Source: Chloropicon primus
Lineage: Eukaryota
Direction: 5' to 3'
Length of the DNA: 64,000 bases
NCBI GenBank assembly: GCA_023205875.1
Contig: CP060759.1
Coordinates: 868,001-932,000 of the forward strand
The notes beneath the pieces are model-generated. The model was not told the origin of the DNA, ran no database searches, and saw only the letters and a list, made by a program, of their open reading frames with translations. Positions 1,199 to 62,200 of the stretch are shown piece by piece (position 1 is the stretch's first letter; each line of letters starts with the position of its first letter). A program made the position numbers and the translations under genes.

Positions 1199-3187
1199 AT
1201 GCCCTTGTTGAACAACTTTAGAAAGAAGTCGAGACCCGCGGTCCACTCAGGTCTACTGGTACGTGAAAGGGACACACTCCTCGCTGCGAGTTCCTTGGTC
1301 ACCTTTCTAGGCCCGAGTCTTTCTGACACGGTTCTCTTTCTCTGCACCTTTCTTGTGGCCTGACCTCTCTGCGCCCCACGCCCACGCAACAGGGCAGCGA
1401 AAGCCCCAGCAGTGCTTCGGCAGATGTCTTTTCGCCTCCACCTCCACCCGTGAGAGCGGAGAGTCCACCGACGACAGAGCACCACGTCTCGGGACCGGCT
1501 TCCACGGACTCTTACCTGCAGTTAGGAAACCACGTGAGGGCACTGGTAAGTCGCTGTCGCACTGGCCCTGCAGCCCGAAGAGGCTTTTTGTTCTTGGGCC
1601 CCGTGCAATGTGGAGACAGACTTTCCACCACGTTGTTCACGGCCCTGCTGCTGGGTGTTCCCTGCTGACTGAGCGCGAACTTGTTTGTTGACTCTTTCTG
1701 TCCAGGTTCGGGAGGCCACGAGGAAAAAGCTCAAGGACGTGGACCATGACGCGAGCACGCGAGTGGTCAATTTCGTTAAGCACAACCAATGCCCCGTCGT
1801 CCTGGAGGAGATGGCAAAAATTTTGTGCGAGAAGCTGAGCTCCAACTGGGCCAACAAGCAGTGGCTAGCGGTCAAACTCACGGATAGACTGTACTCGTCC
1901 GACGCCAAAAACTTTGACGGCACGCAAGACATGGTGGTGCAGGAGCTCACCATGTTGTTCCAGAAGCACACGCAGCTGCACCATCCGACGAGCGACAAGT
2001 GCAGGATAGAGGCATCGAGACTGCTTCAGAAGATGACCGGCCTGGCTCCCCAGGTGCAGGTGAACCAGATGATGGGCGGGCACCTCGTGTTCGCGCCCGC
2101 GGGAGGAAGCGTGCCTCCCCAACTCAGCATGAATTTTCCACACCAAGCCGCTGCTGGCCAACCCGGGGGCGCGCTGGAGGGCGATCAATTCTTCCAGACT
2201 TTGGTGGGGAACGGGCGGAGCGTCCACGCGCGGCCCTCCCCGATGACCGTGACCCCGGCCGCCTTTGTGGATCCCAACGCCCTCAAGAGGGAAGTCTTGG
2301 AGAAGGCCGGGATGACCAACCAGCACGCTGACATCTTGCAGGAACTCCTGTGCAACTTCAGCACGAGCGATTCCTCGGAGCAGGGGGAAGAAGCCGACAC
2401 TCTGGAGATGTTGAGCGAGCTCTCCGAACAGTCCAAGGCCCTTCTGTCGGACATCAACGGCCTGGTTCTGAAATGTCAGGAGCACATCGAGTCCCGAGGC
2501 ATCGCCCAAGCCGTGGAAGAGTCCACCATGGCGATCGACAAGCTGAAAGACGCGCTGGACTTGTACGAAGACGTGAAGCACACGAGGCAGATGATGCTAA
2601 GGCGGACGGGTGGGTCGCAGGGGGCGTTGGCGGCGGGATCCAGCCAAGCGTCGAGGGGCGTGGTCGACGGCGTCCCGGTGTACGGCGACCACGACCCGGG
2701 GTCCTCTCGAGGCGTGGCCCCGACACCTCCTCCCGCCTCGGCGGCGCGGGCGAGCACTCGGGTAGACACGAACCCATTCAGGCGTCTGACTCGGGACAAC
2801 GACTCGGACGGTCACCAGGCAGTCGGTAGGCAAAACCAGGGGAGGCCCAGAGGCAGCTCACAAGAAACCTCCACCGCGAAGGGACCAGGACCCGCAACAA
2901 AGTCGTCTCCACCACTGATTGACGTCAACCAAGATGCCGGGAGCAGCAGCCAGCGATCGATGGGGGAGGCCAGTCAGCCGGCTTTCGCGGCCTCGGGCAG
3001 CCAGGACCAATCCAAGGAGATGCAGCAGCTCATGGGACTTTTTGACACATCGATGGACTTGCTAAGCAGCAGCGGCAGCGCCGGTGGTGATGGAGGCGAA
3101 AAGCTCGAAAGCAAAAGCAGAGGGAGCAACGTCGGGGCCATTGCAATGCCACCCGGTCCCTCGAATCCCTTCGACAGGGTCGAATGA
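1199..3187 (+). CDS. Putative VHS/GAT-like (TOM1-like) trafficking adaptor; probably intron-containing 5' part
   Basis: Main exon ~1706-3187: helical N-terminus, GAT-like helical bundle, low-complexity tail with two NPF motifs (TNPF, SNPF). Upstream GT..AG intron-like segments; exon structure and start not resolved. Confidence 0.4.
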
Positions 3188-3415
3188 AAGATTGATGCGG
3201 CTTCAATTAATCCAGTTTCACCAAGATCTTCTTCTTGCCAATTCTCCGCCCCAGTGTTGGAGGTTTTCCCCTGTTGGTGGGATTCCAGTGTATACCAGTT
3301 TGGTCACACCCAAAGGACAACCCCCTAAGCGTTTTCTCGTGTTCTCACTTGCTGGACAAGGCCAATCTATAGTTACGAGGAGTTACGAGCAGCGAGTGAA
3401 ACCCTAATAACCGTC

Positions 3416-5584
3416 ATGGCGCGATCAGGGAAGCGCCGTAAGAAAAAGGAGAAGCAGGGGAGTGGCTCGACGAGTTCCACAAGGAGGTCGCACTCTGGCG
3501 AGAGTCATGCTCAGGGCGCTTCGAAGTCGGGGCAGGAGTCTCCGACGACGGAGCCGTTACGTCGGTTCTGGAATCAGGCGTTGAAGTGGCTCTACGAGAA
3601 GTGCATGCTTCCTATCGCGGACGACCCCGCCTCTGCGGGTGAGGGTTCGAGCACGCCTCGCAAGAAGCGGGGGGGGAAGCGGAAGGAGAAGCCGCTGGAC
3701 GACCCCGCCTCTGCTTTCGAGGAGGGTTCGAGCACGCCTCGCAAGAAGCGGGGGGGGAAGCGGAAGGGGAAGCCGCCGGAGGCGGCTTCCTCTGCGGGTG
3801 AGAGTTCGAGCTCGTCAGGCAAGCCTCGCAAGAAGCCTCGCAAGAAGGGCAAGAAGAAGAACAAGAAGAAGGGTAAGAAGAAGAAGAACAAGAGGGGGAA
3901 GAAAGCAGGGAAGCAGCCGGGTGGCTTGGCGGACGACAGCGTGAAGAAGACCTGGTTCTCATCGATGAAGAGAGAACTTGAAGAGGTAAAGTGTCCGAAG
4001 ACGGGATGGAGGTCGTGCTTGAACCTTCCAGAAGATTCTGTGGTATCCGTCGAGACATTGCAGCCGCCCGCCAAAAGGAAGAGGGGGCAGAAACTGAAGA
4101 CCTCCAAGCTATTGTCGGAGCGAACGGTGATACGGACGAGGAAGCTGAGGATGCGCTTGAACCCTGAGCAGGCGAAGTGCCTTTGCAACTGGATGGGAGC
4201 TGCGCGTTTCACATACAACAAGTGTTTGGAGGCGGTCAAGAAGGAGCGTTTTCCGCTGGTTTGGACCGTCCTGCTGGACAGATTTGTGACGGCCAAACCT
4301 CGAGGCCCTGAGGTCTTTGAGGGCCTGGAGAAAGAGCTGAAAGAAATCCAATGCTCTCCACGGCCATGGACAAAACAGGAGGCAGAGCTTTTCGCGGCCA
4401 GAGAGAAGAGACTCGAGAGCCAAATTGGAGGCAGACGATTTCGCGCCGAAGTGGCCAAGGACCGGGACTACGTTAGCGGGGCCTTTGTAAATCAGAAGCA
4501 TCCTTGGCTGAAGGATACCCCCTGTGCCATCAGACAAGCTGCCGTGCGAAGTCTCATCAAGGCATGGGATTCGAACATCGCGAAGCAGGAAGCGATGAAG
4601 GAGCGCGGCGAGGAGAAGGGGCACCGCTTCGTTCTCAAGTATCGTCAACGTCAGCAACCGAGTTCTTGGACCATTGAAATTGATGCAAGAGAGTTAAAGA
4701 ACGTGGAGACGATCGAAAGGCCAAACACGAGACACAAGGATGACACCAAGCACAAGAAACGACGCAAGTGGACCAAGCTGGAGGTGTTCAAGGAGAAGAT
4801 GGCCGGCGGGCCCCTGTACTTGACGGAGGAGATCCCCGGGGGCAAGATCGAGGGTGCCGTGAAGATCACAAGAAATCGCCTTGGGCAGTTCCACATGCAC
4901 ATTCCCATCGCGACGCCATGGGATCGCCTGCCACCCCTGAAGCCTGAGAACAAGCGGAAGGTTGTCGCCCTGGATCCGGGAGTCAGGACCTTTCAGACGT
5001 CGTACTCGCCGCAAGAAGGCGTCGGGGAGTATGCCACGGGCGAGCGAGGCTTCGCGAGGCTGTTCAACCTCTGCTGGAGGATTGATGAGATCATTTCCGA
5101 GCGCGAAGACCCAAAGGTGAAGCTCCCTTACCTCGACCGCCGCGACTTGAAGAGACAGCAATACGCCTGCATGGAGAAACTTCGAGGTCTGACGAACGAG
5201 CTTCACAAAAAGGTAGCCAACGATCTATGCAGGAGGTTCGACACAATCCTCCTCCCGGAGTTCAAGTCCCAAGACATGGTGAAGAAGAACAACAACGGGA
5301 GACGCCGAGTGATCAGGAAGAAGACGGCTCGCACGCTCTTGACGTTGAGGCACTATGCGTTCAGAACGTTCTTGGCTTCCAAGGTGCTCTTGCACGGCAG
5401 TGAGCTGGCGATCGTGACGGAGGAGTACACCTCCAAGACCTGTGGCAAGTGCGGACACATCAAGGACAACCTGGGTGGAGCAGAGGTGTACAAGTGCCAG
5501 AAGTGTGGCTTCAAGTGCGGTCGGGATGTGAACGGGGCACGCAACGTCCTCCTGAAGCACTTGCGTCAACCAAAAAGTGTGTAA
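3416..5584 (+). CDS. Fanzor2 (eukaryotic TnpB-like RNA-guided endonuclease)
   Basis: HTH_OrfB-like RTRKLRMRLNPEQ..WMGAARFTYN; RuvC-I VVALDPG (D at 4973); RuvC-II region ILLPEF plus alternative glutamate VTEEYTSKTC (5420); Zn finger CGKC..CQKC; RuvC-III RDVNGARN (D at 5525); Lys/Arg-rich N-terminus. Confidence 0.9.
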   Translation: MARSGKRRKKKEKQGSGSTSSTRRSHSGESHAQGASKSGQESPTTEPLRRFWNQALKWLYEKCMLPIADDPASAGEGSSTPRKKRGGKRKEKPLDDPASAFEEGSSTPRKKRGGKRKGKPPEAASSAGESSSSSGKPRKKPRKKGKKKNKKKGKKKKNKRGKKAGKQPGGLADDSVKKTWFSSMKRELEEVKCPKTGWRSCLNLPEDSVVSVETLQPPAKRKRGQKLKTSKLLSERTVIRTRKLRMRLNPEQAKCLCNWMGAARFTYNKCLEAVKKERFPLVWTVLLDRFVTAKPRGPEVFEGLEKELKEIQCSPRPWTKQEAELFAAREKRLESQIGGRRFRAEVAKDRDYVSGAFVNQKHPWLKDTPCAIRQAAVRSLIKAWDSNIAKQEAMKERGEEKGHRFVLKYRQRQQPSSWTIEIDARELKNVETIERPNTRHKDDTKHKKRRKWTKLEVFKEKMAGGPLYLTEEIPGGKIEGAVKITRNRLGQFHMHIPIATPWDRLPPLKPENKRKVVALDPGVRTFQTSYSPQEGVGEYATGERGFARLFNLCWRIDEIISEREDPKVKLPYLDRRDLKRQQYACMEKLRGLTNELHKKVANDLCRRFDTILLPEFKSQDMVKKNNNGRRRVIRKKTARTLLTLRHYAFRTFLASKVLLHGSELAIVTEEYTSKTCGKCGHIKDNLGGAEVYKCQKCGFKCGRDVNGARNVLLKHLRQPKSV
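3620..3815 (+). repeat. ~78-81 bp in-frame tandem repeat (about 2.5 copies) in the Fanzor N-terminus
   Basis: GACGACCCCGCCTCTGC...TTCGAGCACGCCTCGCAAGAAGCGGGGGGGGAAGCGGAAGG at 3620 and 3698, partial copy ~3790; encodes DDPASA..EGSSTPRKKRGGKRK. Confidence 0.9.
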
Positions 5585-5745
5585 CTCCTCAGGGTTGCAC
5601 ATACGTTTGTTAGTACGGGCTGCCGTGCGCTAAGTGGGCGGAAGTATTCGTTCATGTACGGTGGAATGGTCGTGGTAGGGCCGAATTACCCTGCCGAGAA
5701 ACTTACAAACTCGGTGAAACGACCTTTGCAGAAAACTAACAGGTA
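5585..5745 (+). ncRNA. Candidate Fanzor omegaRNA scaffold
   Basis: Directly 3' of the Fanzor stop; hairpin TTAG-TACGG/CCGTG-CTAA (~5610-5633); nested stems GGTCGT(5668)/ACGACC(5719), GGTAGGG(5674)/CCCTGCC(5689), CCGAG(5694)/CTCGG(5710). Confidence 0.6.
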
Positions 5746-5929
5746 AGTTGTGGCCGGTCTTCTTCTCTCCGTGTTTCTCTCTTTCAGTGGAAAGGAGAAC
5801 TTGCCTTTGTGCTTCCAGTATTGACTGTGAATTCCCTACCGTCCTTTCGTGACTTTTCTGTGTGCTGTTTTGATCTGATGTCTGAACACCATAACACCCA
5901 GGGTAAACGGCAAACAAATCCTGCGACAG

Positions 5930-6157
5930 AGTCTCTCTCTCGCTCGCTCTCGCTCTCGCTCTTTCAAAGCCTCTCTCTGCCTCGCTCTCTGTCTCCTTCT
6001 CTCTCTCACTCTGTCTGAAACTTCATTGAGAAAGCGTCCGAGGGGGTGGGAAAGTCACGAGAGAGCGAACCGAGGAGGGAGAGAGGGAGAGAGCCTCGTC
6101 TTCCCCTCGCCCCAGACGTCACACACACACACACACACACACGCTCACACACACATA
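5930..6157. repeat. CT-rich and (CA)n microsatellites
   Basis: Imperfect (CT)n at 5930-6015, (AC)n at 6119-6157. Confidence 0.9.
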
Positions 6158-6224
6158 CCTTCACGGTCTGTCAACAACAGGAGTGATGCTGACCTACTAG
6201 ACGGGCACCTCCTTTGCAGGCAGG

Positions 6225-8927
6225 ATGTTGTCGCAGGGGTACTGGTTTTTGGAAAGGGATTGCGTGAGGGCCGTGAAGTTATTCTTGTCGAGTGCGTCTT
6301 GCGTTCTCTCCGTCGCAGCAGCGGCTTTGGCGTACACCTTCCTCGCCGGAGCGAATGAGGCGCCCCCTGCCTTCAGAGGCCTCGCTTTCCCTGGGTACAC
6401 ACACACTCCTTTCAGTCTGCTGTTGATATGCGTGAGCGTCGCGGCGAGCTATCCTCAGCCGTGGCCCTGGAGGGAGAGGAGGGTGAAGGTCCTCTTCCTG
6501 CTGCACTTGTTTCTTTGTGCGATAACAACTTTCTTTTCCATTGAGCTCGCCAGGAACATCTTCCACTACGTCAACGACACGAGGGTGTTTCGAGAGCCGC
6601 ACGGGGCACTCGTGGAAAGGACAAGCTGGATAGCACAGAAGCTCTTCGAATTGGCTGGGCTGCTGATCGGCCAGTCGATGGCTGTGCTGCTGCTGGCTCT
6701 CCTCCAAGTCTTCGAGTGCTGCCGAGAGACCATCTGGAAGGGCAAACGGACCGAGTCATCGCCATCTTTGCCGAGAAGGAAGTCGAACAAGAACGACTAC
6801 AACAGAGTTTACAGCGAAGTCAGCCCAGTGCCAGACGGCGAGAAGCTCGACGACGATGATGAGGACGAGGAAGACGAGGACGAGGACGACGACGATGCCG
6901 GGGGTGCAGGGGAGGGAGGTGGCAAGGAGGGCGTGCTCGCGCTGGAGATCGAACAACCGGGGTCAGAGGAGTCAGAGGAGAAAGAGGTGCCGTTCAAATA
7001 TCTCAACTGGCTCTCCCGATGCATCAAGTGGCTCTCTTTGGGTGTGGGCTTGGGCTTTTTCGTCTATGGTTTGGTGATCGCCACGATGACCTTCGCCCCC
7101 ATCGCATCTTCAACGTCATGGGATCAGTCCGCGGAACACCGGTGCAACCCAGGCTCGTCGCGGTGCATGCTTCCGTTTCCCAGCCTGCACCTTCTGAGCC
7201 AGAGCAATGAGACGGCGACTGGGTGGCGGTTCGACGTTCGAGATCCGGGCGTGGGCGTCTATCTGAGGACCTTCAAGTTCCTCACTTTCGAAAGCACGAG
7301 AGATCTGGATGGCTTCAGCCCCATGTCGGCGGTCGTGTTCGAGATGCCTGAGGCGGCCGAAGTGTCTCCGTATCCAGGCAACTACTTTTCGCCCGAGGAA
7401 TCCTCGGAAACAATTCTCATTGACACCACCGTCAACAAAACAATTCCTCACTTCCTTTACAAGAAGGACGGCCTCGTGTACATGCAGCCCAGGGAGCCGT
7501 TCGGCTTCGACCGGCGAATCGTGGCAGGCGTGAGGCAGTTGAAAAACGCGGCCGGAAGCGTCATCTCGCGAAAGCCAAACCCCGCTCTGGCCGGGGAGGC
7601 CGTCGTGAAAGCCCTCGAATCCTTCGGTTGGAGATCGGATGATGAGCTTCAGCTCTGCTGGGAATTCCACACCGCCAGCTGCAGCTCAACGCTTGTTCCA
7701 GGCATGGAGCTGAGGAGGTTCGCTCTCGAAAAGCACAGGGAAGGAAAAGTCAGAAACAAGGTCATCAAAGCGATTGACGAGAGAGACCTCTGCTCGAGTG
7801 ACGACGAGAACCAGACGGCGTACACAATTCACGGCAAGATCGAAAGCCCGAGCTTCCTCCCGATATTGAGCAATACCGCAAACCATGTCCGCGACGGGGA
7901 GAACTACTCGTGGACGGAGTACACCGTGCGAGTTCCGTGCTCGATTGCCACGAACGCGAGCGGGAATGTGACGATAGTCCAGTACGGTCACGGCTTCCTC
8001 GGGGACAGATCCGAAGTCTTGGGGCACTACCTCGGAGAGCTTTCGAACTTACACCGATGGATTTTAGTTGCGGTGGACACCCAAGGATTGACGCGCCACG
8101 ATTTGTTGTTCCTGCTGCAGCTCTGCCTGAACCAAGCTTCGTTAGCGGCGCCTCTGACGGAAATGGTGTGGGAGAGCCACATCAACAGAATGCTTTCTGA
8201 GATGATACTGGTGAAAGAGCTCAGGGAGGAGGTCGCCCCAATTTTGGACGTGTTGAACGGGAGCGTGGACGTCAAGTACGCTTACTATGGCAACAGCCTC
8301 GGAGCGATCACTGGACTTTCGTACGTATCCATGCAAGAGACGACCAAGCGAGCCGTCCTGGGTGTGGGTGGCCTTCCCTACAACTTGATTCTCAGGTTCT
8401 CGGACCAATTCTCGTTCTTCAAAACTCTGCTCCGGGCTCAATTCTTTGACTCGACGAGCGTGGAGCTCTTCGCGCTGATTTCTCAGAGCTTCTGGGATCA
8501 GATAGGAAGCGGTTGGCTTGGGTGCTATTCGCAGGGCGAAGACTTTCAGTGCGGGGGCGCGGGTTACGACTGGGACCATTATCAGAACAAGAACTTTTTC
8601 CTGCAAGACGGCGTGGTGGATGACTCTGTGCCAGCGATCTCGGGCCACCTTGTGGCCAACGCGGTCAACGCCTCGGTGGTCAATCCGGTCCGAGGGATTC
8701 CACTGCTCCGCAACGAAACCGAAGCCAGGTCGCCGAATTCATTTCTGGTGGAGTGGCTGCCAGAACGCAACCTGCACCGCTGCTTGCGTTTGCAACCGGC
8801 AGCAAAGGCGCAGATAGGAAATTTTATCACCAATGGCTGGATCACGGGAGACGAGTGCGGAGCCAACAGCACTTGCGTGGCCGACACCAGCATCGATTCG
8901 TCGTGCGACGTCGACATTGGTCAATGA
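6225..8927 (+). CDS. Membrane-anchored alpha/beta-hydrolase (bacterial lipase-like)
   Basis: Several N-terminal TM segments, acidic loop, then CMLPFPS / LDGFSP motifs, YGHGFLG oxyanion-type motif and YYGNSLG nucleophile elbow. Confidence 0.6.
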   Translation: MLSQGYWFLERDCVRAVKLFLSSASCVLSVAAAALAYTFLAGANEAPPAFRGLAFPGYTHTPFSLLLICVSVAASYPQPWPWRERRVKVLFLLHLFLCAITTFFSIELARNIFHYVNDTRVFREPHGALVERTSWIAQKLFELAGLLIGQSMAVLLLALLQVFECCRETIWKGKRTESSPSLPRRKSNKNDYNRVYSEVSPVPDGEKLDDDDEDEEDEDEDDDDAGGAGEGGGKEGVLALEIEQPGSEESEEKEVPFKYLNWLSRCIKWLSLGVGLGFFVYGLVIATMTFAPIASSTSWDQSAEHRCNPGSSRCMLPFPSLHLLSQSNETATGWRFDVRDPGVGVYLRTFKFLTFESTRDLDGFSPMSAVVFEMPEAAEVSPYPGNYFSPEESSETILIDTTVNKTIPHFLYKKDGLVYMQPREPFGFDRRIVAGVRQLKNAAGSVISRKPNPALAGEAVVKALESFGWRSDDELQLCWEFHTASCSSTLVPGMELRRFALEKHREGKVRNKVIKAIDERDLCSSDDENQTAYTIHGKIESPSFLPILSNTANHVRDGENYSWTEYTVRVPCSIATNASGNVTIVQYGHGFLGDRSEVLGHYLGELSNLHRWILVAVDTQGLTRHDLLFLLQLCLNQASLAAPLTEMVWESHINRMLSEMILVKELREEVAPILDVLNGSVDVKYAYYGNSLGAITGLSYVSMQETTKRAVLGVGGLPYNLILRFSDQFSFFKTLLRAQFFDSTSVELFALISQSFWDQIGSGWLGCYSQGEDFQCGGAGYDWDHYQNKNFFLQDGVVDDSVPAISGHLVANAVNASVVNPVRGIPLLRNETEARSPNSFLVEWLPERNLHRCLRLQPAAKAQIGNFITNGWITGDECGANSTCVADTSIDSSCDVDIGQ

Positions 8928-53021: not shown

Positions 53022-53237
53022 CCGCGACCGCTATGTTGTTTCCTGTTCCTCCCTCCCGCGATTCCCTTAAAGCCATTTGATTTTAAAACGTAAACTAAAA
53101 AAATATTAAGTTACACCCGAAAAAAACCGAAAAAAACGCCTACCCGTTTCCGTTCAATTTTGCTGGAAGGGAAGAAGACTCATACGCTAGGTGGACGGCT
53201 GCGCACACGACGCACAGTATTGTGCGAAGTGTAAGTC

Positions 53238-56200
53238 ATGCCAGAACCAAAGGTTAGGCAAGCTGTCCGTGGCGATGCAATAAATGTTCGCAAAATCGAT
53301 CACCTCACCTGGCCTGAGAATCTGTGGCTTAAAGACAAGGACTTTCAGTTCTACTTCGAATCGTATCTCGAGGGTCAGTTCGTAGTGGAGTGTGGCGACA
53401 GAGTCGTTGGCTGTCTATTCACTCAAAGACTTGACAACGAGTCAACTCTTCTTGATGATGGAAAGACAAGCTCAGACTTTACATCTTTGCACCAGGGCGA
53501 GGGCAAGGTGATTCAGTTGATAAGGATATCTGTCCTCCCCCAGTACGAAGGTTTAGGTTTAAGCCATGCCCTTATCGAAGGATCATTGGAACACTTAAAA
53601 AAACAACAGGGATCAATTGAAAAGGTTGTTGCAGTGACAAGGTGTTCTCAGTTCAAAGCAGCTGGCGCATACCCATACGATGACTACGTCTATAGCGGTC
53701 GCGATCCCACGATAGCTTTCCATGTTGGTAGGGGTGCTGAAGTTGTGAAGATACTTCACAACTTTCGGCTTGAAGACACTCAAAATGATGGACACGGTGT
53801 TCTTATTCGATACAGCTTGAAGACAAACACCGATTCCAACTTTGACCAGTCAACTAGTCAGCTTCAGTTTAGTCGTGATGACGCCGAATCTCGTATCAAA
53901 GACGCCGTTCGGAGAATAGCACAATCTTCTGAAGAGCCTGCTCTAGATGAACCATTGATAGAGTATGGTTTAGATTCCATTGACTTTAGCGGTTTAAAAG
54001 CCAGCTTGGAAAACATCTTTTCCATCAGCTTGGAAGCTACCTTCTTGTTTAGCTATCCAACCGTCCAACAGATCGCGGCCTACGTGGTAGATCAAAATAA
54101 AAATACCGGTAGCAAAGCCAAAGCTTTGGAAGTTGAACTCCCTGATGGATCCTTGACAAAAAGGAGCCCCAATTACTCAGAAGCTATTTGGATAATAGAC
54201 ACTGCTGAAAGACTTCCCGCTGCCATTGAAGTTGGCGGATTTAAAGAGGCAGTTTCTCACGTCCCTTTGAACCGGTGGGACCCCACCGGTTTTGAAGAAG
54301 TCATTGCCCAACAAAGTGGTGTCACTTCTGGTTCTTTTGGTATCTTCCTGCACCTTCATGAGTGTGATATTCATGGGATATCACAGAAAGAGGCTCTTCA
54401 GACCGACCCACAGCAATTGCTCATCATAGAAAATGCTCAGAATCTGAAACGTGCTTCTTGTCCAAAGCACGACGGGGAAATCGGTGTAGCTGCTGCAGTG
54501 TCGAACTTTGACTTTGCAGTACTTCAACAGAAGATCAAGCCGGTTGAGTCGCAGACACATAGCACCCTCATTGGTTCAGACCTGTCTGTCTGCTGCGGGA
54601 AAGTCTCGTACCTTTTGAATTTCAATGGGCCAAGTTATGTGGTGAATACAGCATGCTCCTCTTCTCTTGTGGCTACAAATGCAGCGATGCACTGTCTCAG
54701 GAATTTTGAGTGTCAGCTTCACTTCGTTCTCTCTGCAAGCACTATTCTATCCCCCCACGTAATGGTGGCTTACGCCAAAATGGGAATGCTGTCTATCGAT
54801 GGGAGGTGTCAATCCTTCGACCAGCAAGCGAACGGATACGTGCGAGCAGAAGCAAGCGTTGGTGTAAACCTGGGAATGGCCTCTGGTTCAGGAGTTGCCA
54901 TTGTTGCATCATCCGTACAACAAGATGGAAGGAGCGCAGGACTCACAGCACCAAATGGAATTGCTCAGCAAAAGCTACTGCTTCGCACTTCAATGGATGC
55001 TGATGTGCCTTTGAGTGACATTCAACACCAGGAGATGCACGCAACTGGTACACCGCTCGGCGACCCCATTGAGTACCAAGCATTCAAGCAAGCTCTTAGA
55101 TCGTCGTCACATGAAATGGGCTTTATCATATCAGTGAGTGGCACGAAAGCCATAGCAGGGCACGGGGAGCCATGTGCAGGGCTTTCGAGTACTCTCCGAA
55201 TCATCAAATCATCATTGAAAGCAAAGAAAATAGTCAACAACCGATTGAGATCAATGAACAAACACTTTGGCCCTGATATGATGGGGAGCAACCTCATTTT
55301 TCCTACTGTGAATGGATCAGCAGCACTCAGTAGCTCATACGCAGGTATCAATTCATTTGCATTCCAAGGCACGATCGCCCGCCTTTTGCTCAAATTTGAT
55401 AAAGGCAATGAAAGACCAGCGACACGCAAGGCACTCTGCAAGAAGCTCATCTCCTTCAAATGCGTTTCATATTGTAGCAGCAAAGTATTGGTAAGCAGCG
55501 GATCAAAAAAACTTTGCTTACATCTGAAACCAAAATTTGGACAGTTCACAATAGAAGGAAAAAGAGTCTTAACATTTGCCCAGATGTACTCATATCTTCA
55601 AATCGGCTACAATGATCTTTGCCAAGAGACCACCAAACAGAAAGCTGTAACGGCCGATATGGTTCAAACAAGAGTCATGCACATCGACTACAGGCAACAT
55701 CAAATGATGCAATGTACGGTGGACACAGTGACCGGACAAGTAGAACTCCAATCCCAAGCAGAAGGGAAAAGTCACAAAACCTGGAATCTCCAAGCCATAT
55801 GGAAGAAACCAGTCAAACACTTGCCAGAGCGCCAAACCACACACCAAGATCAAAACGAGTGGAACAAAGGCATCATGGGTATAATGCACCACAATCAAGC
55901 TGCACACACAGCCAATGCAATTGCAACAGTCGCCAAAACATCAAATGACCTCTATGATTACACCGTCAACCCAGCTGTGGGCGACGCAAATCTACAGCTT
56001 GGTGCCGTGGAAAGCGTGATTCGTTTGGCGAGCCAAGACAATGCTAGTCAAGAAACGCAAGTACCAACGGGTTGCCATGCCTATTACATGGGCGACCAGT
56101 CAGATGCTCCAGCAGCATACACGGCAGTCTGTCAGAATGGCTCCCAAGCTGGCATCTCAAGCCATAGACTAAAAAGTCTATGTGAAGAGATCAACTGTGC

Positions 56201-59200
56201 CTCAGTTCTCAATTTGCAAACCAAAGCAGCATTTAAATTGCAAAGTGCTTTGAATGCAGCCAACAGCCAACAGAAAGTGCAAGAAAAGGACATGCTCTTA
56301 TCGGCTTTGGTGTGGTCAGCCTGCTATGCGACCCCTCTGGACTGCGCTGCTCATCAAAATGCAATAATCGCAGGATCAAGGGACGCACAAGAGAATGTGC
56401 TTCTCGTGAAACTTGGAGACGCGCAATCCAATTTGGAGCATCCTCTCAAGATTGCATGCAGAAATGCAGGAGCTCTCTATTCATCATCTCATGTGGATAG
56501 TCCTGAAATGCAAGAGTACCTGACAAACACCTCAAAGTCGGTCCACGTTGTTTGCCTTGTCTCGCACCAAGCAAATGTTGCAAAGCAACTTGTAGGCCTT
56601 GCCAACCTTGTCAAAGCGGTGAACAAGTCAAACATGGAATCACCTAGTATCACTGTGGTTTTCTTGGATTCACAAACGACCATGAACGTCCAACACAACA
56701 CCTCAAAAGCATTGTGGGGAGCATGCAGGACGATGAGAATGGAGTACCCATCCTTGCAATTGACAACCATTCAAATGGATGCACACATGGACAAGAGTCA
56801 GGCAGCTCTTTACCTCTTGTCAGAAATCCAAAACAAACATTCAACTGAAAAGGAAGTCATGTACAAGAATGCGACACGATACATCAATACCATTGTGGAG
56901 AAGTATCCTTCTGCATCACAGCATCTCTCCCTCAATCCACATCTGGAAAAGCTCCAGAGAGGATCATATGTTATCACAGGAGGTCTTGGAGGTCTGGGTC
57001 TTGTGACCGCGCAACTTCTTGCAGATATGGGAGCGACAAGCATATCTCTCCTCTCAAGAAGTGGCATCATTCAGCGCACGGACCAAAACCTTAATGCCAT
57101 TCTCGACAAAGTAAGAGAGAAAGCCAATGTGGAGGTTATCGCATGTGATGTGAGCAAAGAAGATCATGTGCGCAATCTCTACACAAAGCAAAACCATCCT
57201 TGTGTGGGAATTATACATGCTGCCGGTGTCTTACGAGATGGCCTTGCTGCAAATCTCAACCATACTCAGGTCCAACAGGTATTTGACCCAAAGATCAGTG
57301 GCGCTTTGCATTTGCATCACAACACACTCCTGCAGCCATTGCAGGTATGCATCATGTTCTCCTCCATAGTGTCACTCTATGGAAACATTGGTCAGACCTC
57401 CTACAGTGCAGCAAATACCTATCTTGATACTTTGGCTGCTCTAAGGCAAAACCAAGGCCTTCCTGCGGTCAGCATACAATGGCCAGCAATATCTGGCATT
57501 GGCATGTGGGAAGGTCTATCAAGTGTCCACAAGAAAACATTTGAATTCAACCTTCCCGTAAAGGCCGTTATATCGTGCCTTCAAAATCTTGTGTCAAAGA
57601 AATCCTTCACAATCACAACCGTGACGATTTTACCAAGGTGGATGATCTACGGAACCAGGGAAAAGAACAAAGCACACATGGCAGCAAAGGCGGATCCAAA
57701 TGAAATCCAGCGGCAGCCAACAAGCGGAAGAAGCCAGAGCGTCAAATTCACATCTGTAGCTGTGTTGACTTCCCAAGTGCAAAATACAATTGAGCAAGCA
57801 GTCATAGATACTATTGGAGAAACCATTGACACGGAAAGTCCTCTCATGGAAGCAGGAGTCGACTCGCTTGCTTCATCAGAGCTTATCAACAAGATCAATG
57901 ATGACATGGGAACCTCTTTGGGGCCCACAATCTTGTTCGACTATCCAACAATTCAGGATCTCACACAGCACCTTGTGCAGACCCTCAAAGGACCTGACGC
58001 TACAGATCACGCCATTGAGGCTGTGGAGCGCATCCCAAACCATGATCCAATGCATGCTGTGACAACAACAATGCTGTCTTCTGCTATCAGATATCCAAAC
58101 CATACAAATTCAAACCAAAGGTTCTTGAATGTCCTTAACAACCAGTCCGAGCTTTGCTCAGTCACTCCACTTCAACGGTGGGACCGCATGGATTGGTATT
58201 CCTCACAGGGCTATGGGAACGACATCTATGTGCCCTTTGGATACTGGCTTCCAGACCTCTGGACCTTCCAACCTGATGCACTAAGCATGACTTCCGCAGA
58301 ATCCCTTTATGTGGACCCACAAGGAAGGAAGCTCCTGGAGGTCACATGGGAGGCCATGTACAACACTCCTCTATCTTCAAACAAACATGCCAGAACAAAT
58401 ACAGGTGTTTATGTAGGATGTTGTCAACAGGATTTCCAAAAAAATATCCATCACATGACAGACCCAGGGAAACAAATACTGGCATCCATAAGCTTCCTTT
58501 GTGGTCGTGTTTCTTATGTGATGGGCTTCAAAGGACCATGCATCAGCATAGATACTGCATGTTCCTCCTCGCTTGCAGCAACTCACTTGGGCAGGACAGC
58601 CATTATAGCACATGAATGTGATACAGCAACAATAGCAGGAACAAATATAATGATTGCACCACAAACAACGCAAGCTATTTGCAATTTGCAAGCCCTTGCC
58701 GTGGATGGAAGATGCAAAACCCTTGATGCAACTGCAAATGGATATGGCCGTGCCGAAGCTATTGCTGCCGTAATCATTGCAAATGCAAACGATACACACA
58801 CGAACATGCTCAAAATGCCTGTCAACATCGTTGCATCTTTTGTGAACCAAGATGGAAGATCAAGCAGTCTGACTGCACCAAATGGGCCATCACAGTCAAC
58901 ACTCATCTCATCTGCTTTGAGGCAAGCAAATCTGAAGCCAGAACAAATCAACCATGTTGTCATGCATGGAACAGGAACACCTCTGGGTGACCCAATTGAG
59001 GTTGGTGCCCTGGGACAAGCATTCCATTCAGATGACAAAGTTCATATGCTTGCACTTGCTGCAGTCAAGGTTGCTTTCGGACATACAGAAGGAGCAGCAG
59101 GACTCACGGGCCTACTTAGTGCAATGCAGTCGTGTAGCACGTTATGCATTCAACCGGTTACCGCATGCAGAAACATGAATGTTCATGTGCAGGGTGCAAT

Positions 59201-62200
59201 CAAAGATCATAGAGATGGGCACAAAAGAGTCACTTCTGCAAGGATTCAACAAGGTCCTTGGTCATTCACTTGTGATGAAAACAATGACAAAGCAATCGCA
59301 GGGACAAGCTCGTTTGGCATGAGCGGAGTCAACAGTCACGGGGTTGTTGAAGCAAAACTTGCAGGCCATACTTACAATGCGCAGAGTATTGCATGGAACA
59401 ACAAGCAAGTACTCTTCCCAATGGTTGGGTGTGCATTTGTGAAGGCTTCCTACAAAGCATCTACAAAACAACACCAAGTATTTGCGATTCAAATCAAGGA
59501 CCACAACCTGCTCGACCACATGGTCATGGGGAAATCCATTTTACCAGGTGCAGGATTCATGGAACTGTCATCAGCCTCTGCACGAGCTATGCTCAATCCA
59601 AACGTCTTACGTGATCTCAAACCAGTGCTTGCAAAGATATCAATTCCAGCCCCGATGCAGTTGGAACCAAACAAACATCAAATGATGCAATGTACGGTGG
59701 ACACAGTGACCGGACAAGTAGGACTGAAAAGTCACAAAACCTGGAATCTCCAAGCCATATGGAAGAAACCAGTCAAACACTTGCCAGAGCGCCAAACCAC
59801 ACACCAAGATCAAAACGAGTGGAACAAAGGCATCATGGGTATAATGCACCACAATCAAGCTGCACACACAGCCAATGCAATTGCAACAGTCGCCAAAACA
59901 TCAAATGACCTCTATGATTACACCGTCAACCCAGCTGTGGGCGACGCAAATCTACAGCTTGGTGCCGTGGAAAGCGTGATTCGTTTGGCGAGCCAAGACA
60001 ATGCTAGTCAAGAAACGCAAGTACCAACGGGTTGCCATGCCTATTACATGGGCGACCAGTCAGATGCTCCAGCAGCATACACGGCAGTCTGTCAGAATGG
60101 CTCCCAAGCTGGCATCTCAAGCCATAGACTAAAAAGTCTATGTGAAGAGATCAACTGTGCCTCAGTTCTCAATTTGCAAACCAAAGCAGCATTTAAATTG
60201 CAAAGTGCTTTGAATGCAGCCAACAGCCAACAGAAAGTGCAAGAAAAGGACATGCTCTTATCGGCTTTGGTGTGGTCAGCCTGCTATGCGACCCCTCTGG
60301 ACTGCGCTGCTCATCAAAATGCAATAATCGCAGGATCAAGGGACGCACAAGAGAATGTGCTTCTCGTGAAACTTGGAGACGCGCAATCCAATTTGGAGCA
60401 TCCTCTCAAGATTGCATGCAGAAATGCAGGAGCTCTCTATTCATCATCTCATGTGGATAGTCCTGAAATGCAAGAGTACCTGACAAACACCTCAAAGTCG
60501 GTCCACGTTGTTTGCCTTGTCTCGCACCAAGCAAATGTTGCAAAGCAACTTGTAGGCCTTGCCAACCTTGTCAAAGCGGTGAACAAGTCAAACATGGAAT
60601 CACCTAGTATCACTGTGGTTTTCTTGGATTCACAAACGACCATGAACGTCCAACACAACACCTCAAAAGCATTGTGGGGAGCATGCAGGACGATGAGAAT
60701 GGAGTACCCATCCTTGCAATTGACAACCATTCAAATGGATGCACACATGGACAAGAGTCAGGCAGCTCTTTACCTCTTGTCAGAAATCCAAAACAAACAT
60801 TCAACTGAAAAGGAAGTCATGTACAAGAATGCGACACGATACATCAATACCATTGTGGAGAAGTATCCTTCTGCATCACAGCATCTCTCCCTCAATCCAC
60901 ATCTGGAAAAGCTCCAGAGAGGATCATATGTTATCACAGGAGGTCTTGGAGGTCTGGGCCTTGTGACCGCGCAACTTCTTGCAGATATGGGAGCGACAAG
61001 CATATCTCTCCTCTCAAGAAGTGGCATCATTCAGCGCACGGACCAAAACCTTAATGCCATTCTCGACAAAGTAAGAGAGAAAGCCAATGTGGAGGTTATC
61101 GCATGTGATGTGAGCAAAGAAGATCATGTGCGCAATCTCTACACAAAGCAAAACCATCCTTGTGTGGGAATTATACATGCTGCCGGTGTCTTACGAGATG
61201 GCCTTGCTGCAAATCTCAACCATACTCAGGTCCAACAGGTATTTGACCCAAAGATCAGTGGCGCTTTGCATTTGCATCACAACACACTCCTGCAGCCATT
61301 GCAGGTATGCATCATGTTCTCCTCCATAGCTTCACTCTATGGAAACATTGGTCAGACCTCCTACAGTGCAGCAAATACCTATCTTGATACTTTGGCTGCT
61401 CTAAGGCAAAACCAAGGCCTTCCTGCGGTCAGCATACAATGGCCAGCAATATCTGGCATTGGCATGTGGGAAGGTCTATCAAGTGTCCACAAGAAAACAA
61501 CACCGTTCACGCTGTCTGTCGAGGGAGCTATCACATCTCTCAATAAGATTCTGAAGGACCTTTCATCCTTCACAATCACAACCGTGACGATTTTACCAAG
61601 GTGGATGATCTACGGAACCAGGGAAAAGAACAAAGCACACATGGCAGCAAAGGCGGATCCAAATGAAATCCAGCGGCAGCCAACAAGCGGAAGAAGCCAG
61701 AGCGTCAAATTCACATCTGTAGCTGTGTTGACTTCCCAAGTGCAAAATACAATTGAGCAAGCAGTCATAGATACTATTGGAGAAACCATTGACACGGAAA
61801 GTCCTCTCATGGAAGCAGGAGTCGACTCGCTTGCTTCATCAGAGCTTATCAACAAGATCAATGATGACATGGGAACCTCTTTGGGGCCCACAATCTTGTT
61901 CGACTATCCAACAATTCAGGATCTCACACAGCACCTTGTGCAGACCCTCAAAGGACCTGACGCTACAGATCACGCCATTGAGGCTGTGGAGCGCATCCCA
62001 AACCATGATCCAATGCATGCTGTGACAACAACAATGCTGTCTTCTGCTATCAGATATCCAAACCATACAAATTCAAACCAAAGGTTCTTGAATGTCCTTA
62101 ACAACCAGTCCGAGCTTTGCGCAGTCACTCCACTTCAACGGTGGGACCGCATGGATTGGTATTCCTCACAGGGCTATGGGAACGACATCTATGTGCCCTT

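Follow-up and report, generated by a model that had tools for sequence, protein, structure and literature searches.

The locus described here raises the question of how a Fanzor2 nuclease could obtain a guide from flanking DNA when its predicted omegaRNA scaffold ends 154 nt before the end of the transposon that carries it. The window, i.e. the whole 64,000-nt stretch of contig CP060759.1 of the minute marine green alga Chloropicon primus analysed here (positions 868,001 to 932,000), harbours a Fanzor gene and the trace of a TnpA gene:

3416-5584, plus strand: Fanzor2 open reading frame (ORF), 722 aa, with a Lys-rich N-terminus and RuvC residues D520 (in DPG), E670 and D704
3922-4092, plus strand: decayed remnant of an IS607 serine-recombinase gene, TnpA, in a frame different from that of the Fanzor N-terminus, detected by tblastn

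The product of the ORF matched the Pfam families Cas12f1-like_TNB and HTH_OrfB_IS605, and its best solved relative was ApmFz2 (PDB 9b0l, E 9e-20; the next one, E 9e-8). RuvC-I contains DPG at residues 520-522, which serves as a mark of Fanzor2 (PMC10711439). Likewise in agreement with Fanzor2, RuvC-II E670 is located six residues ahead of zinc-finger C676, and RuvC-III contributes D704. By these motifs the window ORF is an intact Fanzor2, for which nuclease activity is predicted. It is 98% identical to a Chloropicon primus 'IS605 transposase' and belongs to a cluster of 46 sequences; among the matches listed, 21 of the 23 C. primus members retained all of the D520, E670 and D704 motifs. Lemieux et al. 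report 25 such genes in C. primus, most of them with an RNA-seq depth of 19-88. No protein relative of the window Fanzor was found in the viral collection. The copies range from 686 to 746 aa, and imperfect tandem repeats of ~78 nt are present at 3619-3859, in the Lys-rich N-terminus. Three annotated gene models (P0135, P0004 and P0146), which are predictions, fuse the Fanzor coding sequence with downstream host exons, in one instance those of a SET-domain gene.

An IS607 ancestry is indicated by relatives in which Fanzor overlaps TnpA and by the remnant retained in the window. For comparison, the nearest among 80 metagenome loci (41-56% identity) were used. These relatives (L001-L005) are IS607-type, with TnpA whole or partial. 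In L001, L002, L004 and L005 the Fanzor N-terminus overlaps the TnpA gene in another frame, as it does in the window (3416-4092). TnpA is whole in L005, where it comprises Resolvase and MerR domains, partial or broken in L001, L002 and L004, and reduced to a trace in the window (37% identity to L005 TnpA over 57 aa, with one stop; E 0.001 in a five-sequence database). Because of this overlap in the other frame, the long N-terminal extension of Fanzor appears to have been overprinted on TnpA. In L003 (53% identity), which is located on an AT-rich contig, an 83-bp stretch past the stop codon (3311-3393) occurs twice upstream in inverted orientation (749-830 and 1335-1416), possibly representing a further capture by terminal inverted repeats (TIRs). 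In L005, the putative left junction (4-12) and the scaffold end share a 9-mer, and CCG precedes the break; this is a possible IS607 target signature.

The borders of the present element are formed by short termini and a target site duplication (TSD):

3250-3254, plus strand: left TSD CCCAG, identical to 5897-5901
3255-3258, plus strand: left terminus TGTT, a 4-bp exact inverted repeat, degenerate beyond
5893-5896, plus strand: right terminus AACA, the true right end of the element according to DNA depth, contigs and published insertions
5897-5901, plus strand: right TSD CCCAG, which would supply the predicted 3' splice site

The window element (3255-5896, TGTT..AACA, 5-bp TSD CCCAG) is a copy of the Fanzor2* element already published for Chloropicon primus: it possesses TIR and TSD, contains Fanzor as its sole gene and is multicopy. 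Multicopy depth starts in the bin 3201-3301, one metagenome contig exits at 3254, and TGTTGGAGG is the start common to the window element and a published heterozygous insertion on chr17. As for the right end, it had been placed at 5731 or 5743 in the initial annotation. In DNA runs X1 and X2, however, the depth was ~50-80 times that of the left flank throughout bins 3201-3301 to 5827-5927 and did not fall at 5742 (bins of 5625-5927: 9178, 9578 and 8191 in X1, 6931, 5755 and 7675 in X2; left flank 103-126). Metagenome contigs crossed 5742 unbroken to 5760, and one contig exited at 5897. A published indel table lists three heterozygous insertions of 2664-2707 bp; within the 400 characters per entry to which their sequences are known, both insertions with a visible right end (chr3 and chr6) carry the whole of 5743-5896. 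The right end of the element is therefore 5896. As the element continues to this position, the bases after 5742 are not flank, and the 15-20 nt previously taken for the guide are internal to the element, start with the predicted 5' splice site and are largely missing from RNA-type contigs.

The element differs from IS607 elements in that TnpA is only a remnant with a stop and that a TSD and the TGTT..AACA termini are present. No integrase-type transposase, integrase or LTR direct repeats were found in the element or the window (single ORF, no end-to-end repeat). An inverted-repeat scan yielded 344 pairs, the 4-bp TIR not being among them; the inverted pair 3237-3256/5785-5804 was taken as chance. 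A low-GC region at 53-64 kb was rejected as a partner element, since it encodes a polyketide synthase (53235-64000, GC 0.45-0.47, a giant modular ORF of >3588 aa with near-identical repeated modules). The searched supplements of PMC10711439 and PMC12301720 contained no element-end DNA as text. Some contigs enter the element as late as 5413 (X5) or 5595 (X1, at single-copy depth), which suggests truncated, RNA-only 'ghost' copies.

Inside the element, the region adjoining the Fanzor2 ORF folds into the following parts:

5577-5602, plus strand: 11-bp hairpin spanning the stop codon, likely the 5' part of the omegaRNA (pair probability 0.9-1.0)
5604-5617, plus strand: 3-bp stem with an 8-nt loop, of which GTTAG at 5609-5613 is the predicted 5' pseudoknot strand
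5620-5664, plus strand: long peripheral stem in the constrained fold, with a 5-nt bulge at 5629-5633
5668-5724, plus strand: junction and peripheral stems proposed in the initial annotation; a subfamily swaps out 5625-5714
5736-5742, plus strand: CTAAC, the predicted 3' pseudoknot strand, plus AG; predicted scaffold end, which would also form the exonic part of the splice donor

The nearest loci share this layout, with a stop-codon hairpin (at the equal place in L001, L002 and L004), a 3-bp stem with an 8-nt loop 15-19 nt past the stop, and a 3' pseudoknot strand after an A-rich run. The stem-loop and the pseudoknot are kept with compensatory changes in L001, L002, L004 and L005: the loop and 3' strands read GTTAG/CTAAC in the window and L002, GTTGG/CCAAC in L001, GCTGG/CTAGC in L004 and GCTCT/AGAGC in L005. 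In these strands, which were chosen by complementarity in five loci only (L005 being added by eye), all 40 cells over 8 positions were paired (39 Watson-Crick, 1 G-U), both sides had changed in five of the eight pairs, and when the 3' strands were permuted, 2 of the 120 orders kept all pairs, namely the original order and the one in which two identical strands trade places. The table of pairs was made from the motif rather than from an alignment, as MAFFT misaligned the four omegaRNAs. The motif matched 12 of 67 regions, and eight of these matches, among the 63 more distant loci, were at scattered places. The predicted pseudoknot of 5609-5613 with 5736-5740 is thus supported by covariation in a small sample. 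The main claim of the initial annotation, that the region is a Fanzor2 omegaRNA, held.

The pseudoknot C of ApmFz2 occupies position -2, and the same register would put the scaffold end at G5742. We infer that 5575-5742 constitutes the omegaRNA scaffold, ending at CAG 5742. The predicted scaffold end and the element end, which coincide in the canonical IS607/OMEGA architecture, are thus apart in this element (5742 vs 5896). As the relatives are IS607-type and the window retains a decayed trace of TnpA, it can be inferred that an IS607 element once ended on the right at 5742, a position now located 154 nt inside a newer element. CAGG at 5740-5743, formerly a candidate for the element end, is no such end; it does mark the predicted scaffold/guide border.

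The details of the fold proposed earlier fared unevenly. Every word quoted was in place (GGTCGT 5668, ACGACC 5719, GGTAGGG 5674, CCCTGCC 5689, CCGAG 5694, CTCGG 5710, TTTGCAG 5725, TTGCA 5595 and CAGG 5740). The stem GGTAGGG/CCCTGCC was confirmed, with a pair probability of 0.92-0.99 in 5570-5745. The closing stem GGTCGT/ACGACC reached 0.41-0.45 in the ensemble, but forms when the strands of the actual pseudoknot are kept unpaired. CCGAG/CTCGG was weak (0.06-0.25), because 5694-5695 are shared with the GGTAGGG/CCCTGCC stem; 3 bp of it remain. Instead of a hairpin at 5610-5633, absent as such, there are the small stem-loop 5604-5617 and the long stem 5620-5664. A pseudoknot of TTGCA with TGCAG was ruled out (probability 0.0), because TTGCA is the 3' arm of the overlooked 11-bp hairpin, where it is locked. 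The interval 5585-5760 as a fold was chance-like (z -1.22, 27 of 200 shuffles as good); among 11 sub-windows chosen post hoc, 5665-5726 (z -3.1) and 5560-5731 (z -2.9) ranked first and 5668-5760 (z -0.9) last. No Rfam family reached its gathering score in 3000-6300 (seven weak matches), and accordingly no group I intron of the IStron kind matched there at threshold.

The omegaRNA region is covered by assembled contigs. The bulge 5629-5633 is deleted in 3573 of 3703 depth units in X1 and 4904 of 5152 in X2, and also in X4, X5 and X7, so that most copies would form a continuous 18-bp helix. The subfamily mentioned above replaces the middle of the omegaRNA (5625-5714) while keeping both pseudoknot strands; it is seen as a joint from 5624 to 5715 in X3 and as a loose end at 5624 in X5.

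What follows the predicted scaffold resembles an intron:

5743-5901, plus strand: predicted 159-nt spliceosomal intron, with the donor GTAAGT at 5743-5748 and, as putative acceptor, the AG of the TSD
5821, 5870 and 5875, plus strand: branch-site candidates, sequence words
5819-5899, plus strand: AG-free tract of 81 nt, between the final AG within the element (5818) and the next one, in the TSD

Judged against the splice-site consensus, the stretch presents the features of a U2 intron: a GT donor in consensus context, a branch site and an AG-free pyrimidine tract. CAG/GTAAGT is unique in the 64 kb, and CAGGTAAGT occurs once there, both strands considered. The donor falls exactly at the predicted scaffold end, 2 nt past the pseudoknot, within a 3' region of 310 nt; GTAAGT is invariant among copies, and positions 5749 and 5751 (+7 and +9) are variable. 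AG-free windows of 81 nt are rare on the plus strand (305 of 63919, 0.5%), though less so against the tract's own composition (4.5% of shuffles). The length of the predicted intron (156-159 nt) compares with a published genome mean of 152-154 nt, and by eye it resembles four unannotated candidate host introns.

The splicing hypothesis had been set down before the RNA-type contigs were examined. Four runs from four studies were used (X3, X4, X5 and X7); their kinds are guesses ('RNA?' for X4, X5 and X7, 'DNA?' for X3), and the data are assembled contigs without strand or RNA ends. The depth dropped at 5742 in all four runs, 5- to 20-fold (before/after: 1888/~100 in X7, 282/34 in X5, 28/0 in X4 and thousands to ~15000/~2000 in X3). 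Loose ends at 5742-5745 were present in X4, X7 (two) and X3 (two) and led into four different sequences, one of them common to X7 and X3; in X7, five branch contigs among those listed end at 5742-5744. RNA-type contigs hence leave the element at the donor into varied sequences. The profile of X3, despite its label, is like that of X7 and unlike those of X1 and X2. Three of the four junction sequences look like coding exons. Compared with known flanks, the junction start GAT fits AGGAT and GTG fits the 4-nt flank GGTG, over 3 nt only. The four junction starts had no exact match in the 64-kb window and two one-mismatch matches without extension. Among the contigs listed, no joint led to the AGs at 5787 and 5818, inside the element, and none ran from 5742 to 5902, the joint that splicing of the window copy would give; X5 contains an unspliced contig across 5867-5919, the right junction of this copy. 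In X3, one contig exits at 5863, and a contig of 2931 nt is placed at 5970-6100 with 2756 letters unplaced.

We then considered what the predicted acceptor would deliver as a guide:

5902-5921, plus strand: predicted guide of the window copy after splicing, taken from flanking DNA

AG occurs in all four flanks readable over 5 nt, i.e. CCCAG, read on both sides of the window copy, AGGAT, from a left flank, and AGGAG and ACAGA, each from a right flank in error-prone PacBio data; a fifth flank reads only GGTG. With an AG background in 5-mers of 0.24-0.27, this corresponds to ~0.004 for four flanks, calculated post hoc. Yoon et al. (PMC10711439) describe the TSD as highly variable. At all three empty sites that could be rebuilt, C precedes the AG. 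With CCCAG and ACAGA (two of the four TSDs), the predicted 3-nt TAM and the protospacer are also present at the filled allele, and such a copy would therefore cut its own flank, while TSDs starting with AG would escape self-targeting (AAG vs CAG).

From this, the following model can be proposed. CAG/GTAAGT would be spliced to the first usable AG beyond the AG-free right end of the element, mostly within the 5-bp TSD, and the spliced RNA would be trimmed and bound by Fanzor. The AG preceding the protospacer would act as TAM, likely CAG or NAG; since all acceptors have AG as their last bases, an AG would invariably stand before the protospacer at the empty allele. Cutting of the empty allele on the homologue, or of an excision site, might then lead to repair from the filled copy, by analogy with TnpB/IS607 biology, and such repair would keep or spread the element. 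For IS605 and IS607 TnpB, cutting followed by repair from the filled copy has been demonstrated, and repair of an empty allele is plausible in C. primus because this alga is reported to be mostly diploid. Splicing would replace the solution of other Fanzors, a fixed TSD within the scaffold, which is barred here because the TSD is variable and the 3' end is locked by the pseudoknot. We consider splicing at 5742, taken alone, highly probable. That an intron starting at 5743 removes the right end of the element, joining the flank to the predicted scaffold as a guide against the empty allele, is in our opinion probable, and a guide from flanking DNA would most likely arise only after splicing. With slightly less assurance, although still leaning in favour, we propose that this is the first RNA-guided nuclease with a spliceosome-joined guide, in which the acceptor AG equals the TAM and AG-bearing insertions program themselves against their empty allele.

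Several other explanations were weighed. The intron might be real but serve the mRNA (3' end formation, poly(A) signal or reduction of harm to the host), the guide being incidental and having little effect on the empty allele. The exon-like look of three of the four junction sequences, as if splicing went to ordinary host acceptors, would agree with this, and so would the three fused gene models, although they are predictions with the donor upstream of the stop; self-targeting with two of the four TSDs and the persistence of heterozygous empty alleles point the same way. Nevertheless, an intron serving only the mRNA would not need its donor exactly at the scaffold end within the 310-nt 3' region, catalytic motifs retained in 21 of the 23 members listed, or AG in all four TSD-length flanks readable, and we regard this explanation as unlikely. 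Alternatively, there may be no splicing at all: a few genomic copies could end at CAG 5742 in the IS607 manner and be expressed with ordinary flank guides, the long copies being silent or having a fixed guide. The IS607-type relatives with whole or partial TnpA would fit such short copies, as would the junctions in a run labelled 'DNA?', and loose ends in X1 and X2 were judged among those listed, with at least 101 more existing. However, the DNA depth is steady at 5742, X3 shares its profile and one junction with X7 rather than with X1/X2, a perfect donor stands at the break, the element is without an intact TnpA and both published right ends are long, all of which makes this explanation improbable.

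Two further possibilities dispense with splicing of the functional RNA. Fixed-guide TnpB derivatives exist, and the unspliced RNA, some of which is present, could by analogy provide one fixed guide from 5743 in all copies, with a virus, a different element or some locus of the host as its target; 5743-5765 lies within the element and hardly differs between copies. Most of the RNA-type depth nevertheless ends before 5743, +7 and +9 vary, and in the search against viruses suggested by the initial annotation this guide had 19 exact 15-mer matches in IMG/VR, none of them longer than 16 nt and one of the 19 after CAG, which looks like chance. The right end had no match in the viral collection, in which the gapped motif gave one match (L100), without a Fanzor. 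A fixed guide is, if anything, more doubtful than unspliced short copies. Finally, the loop could pair with TAACA at 5892-5896, giving an unspliced scaffold of ~320 nt with the guide past the TSD, since TGTTA at 5608-5612 is complementary to TAACA both at 5737-5741 and at 5892-5896. Such pairing would have one pair fewer, G5613 being left without a partner. In addition, no stable fold (z about 0) and low RNA depth were observed for 5740-5900, and the variable TSD would occupy the border between scaffold and guide; we consider this very improbable.

If the preferred model, i.e. a guide joined to the scaffold by the spliceosome, is true, it would explain how a Fanzor2 whose 3' end is locked by a pseudoknot can remain programmable in a TIR transposon with variable TSDs. 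Capture of a Fanzor2 by a TIR transposon is the step that has been proposed for the origin of Fanzor1. The identity of the TAM would be tied to the splice-site consensus, and the native role of Fanzor could be tested in C. primus, which is diploid and combines ~25 copies with intact nucleases and heterozygous sites. As for tools, Pol II transcripts could serve as a source of guides controlled by splicing, while scaffold prediction from transposon ends and native-locus tests in E. coli would miss such a guide.

The element and its Fanzor2 are already known, and it is the proposed route of guide formation that is probably new to the literature. No spliceosome-made Fanzor or TnpB guide was found in the CC-licensed PMC and bioRxiv literature searched, 'Chloropicon' is absent from the main text of Saito, of Jiang and of a 2026 review, and passages of further sources were compared (10.1101/2023.08.09.552727, PMC11832414, PMC10432273, PMC10530073, PMC13565253, PMC6731263 and PMC12301720). 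Yoon et al. 2023 (PMC10711439) described the C. primus Fanzor2* element with a TIR and a 5-nt TSD of variable sequence, and found no autonomous partner; the window element agrees in protein family (98%), in Fanzor as the only gene and in the TIR and 5-nt TSD, and no autonomous partner was found in the window either. The passages compared of that paper and its preprint mention neither the ends of the omegaRNA nor a scaffold end inside the element nor an intron. The omegaRNAs of ApmFz2 (9B0L), NlovFz2 and IS607 TnpB, as described in the passages compared, go with DPG and a shifted Glu and with 3-nt TAMs. They have, like the window, a 5' hairpin and a pseudoknot between a loop and a 3' strand ending 2 nt before the guide. 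In these systems the scaffold ends at the element end and the guide is read through, whereas in the window the element continues for 154 nt beyond the predicted scaffold end and its TnpA is decayed. Mollusc Fanzor2* (MmeFz2, TAM TAG, TSD TTAN) and the SfAV and Spu Fanzor1 elements resemble the window in being borne by TIR/TSD elements; there, a fixed TSD is part of the scaffold, while here the TSD is variable, and the TIR and part of the TSD are apparently spliced out. TG..CA ends, as found in the window element, are also typical of Ginger2/TDD and LTR-retroelement integrase-type elements. These share the 5-bp TSD with it as well (TSD lengths according to PMC10045372), but contain an integrase or LTRs, of which the window element has none. 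Introners (PMC12130899, in whose available text Fanzor, TnpB and Chloropicon do not occur) likewise are transposons that encode or co-opt spliceosomal signals; in their case the whole element leaves the host mRNA, whereas here only the last 154 nt would leave the element's own transcript. Lastly, IStrons (10.1101/2023.11.20.567912) combine a group I intron with IS605/IS607 and TnpB, and their splice site is located at the border of scaffold and guide, as in the window. However, IStrons are self-splicing, and it is the 3' splice site that lies there, so that the guide is severed, whereas the predicted spliceosomal 5' splice site of the window would join the guide; if true, the C. primus element would mirror IStrons, in which the guide RNA is lost through splicing.
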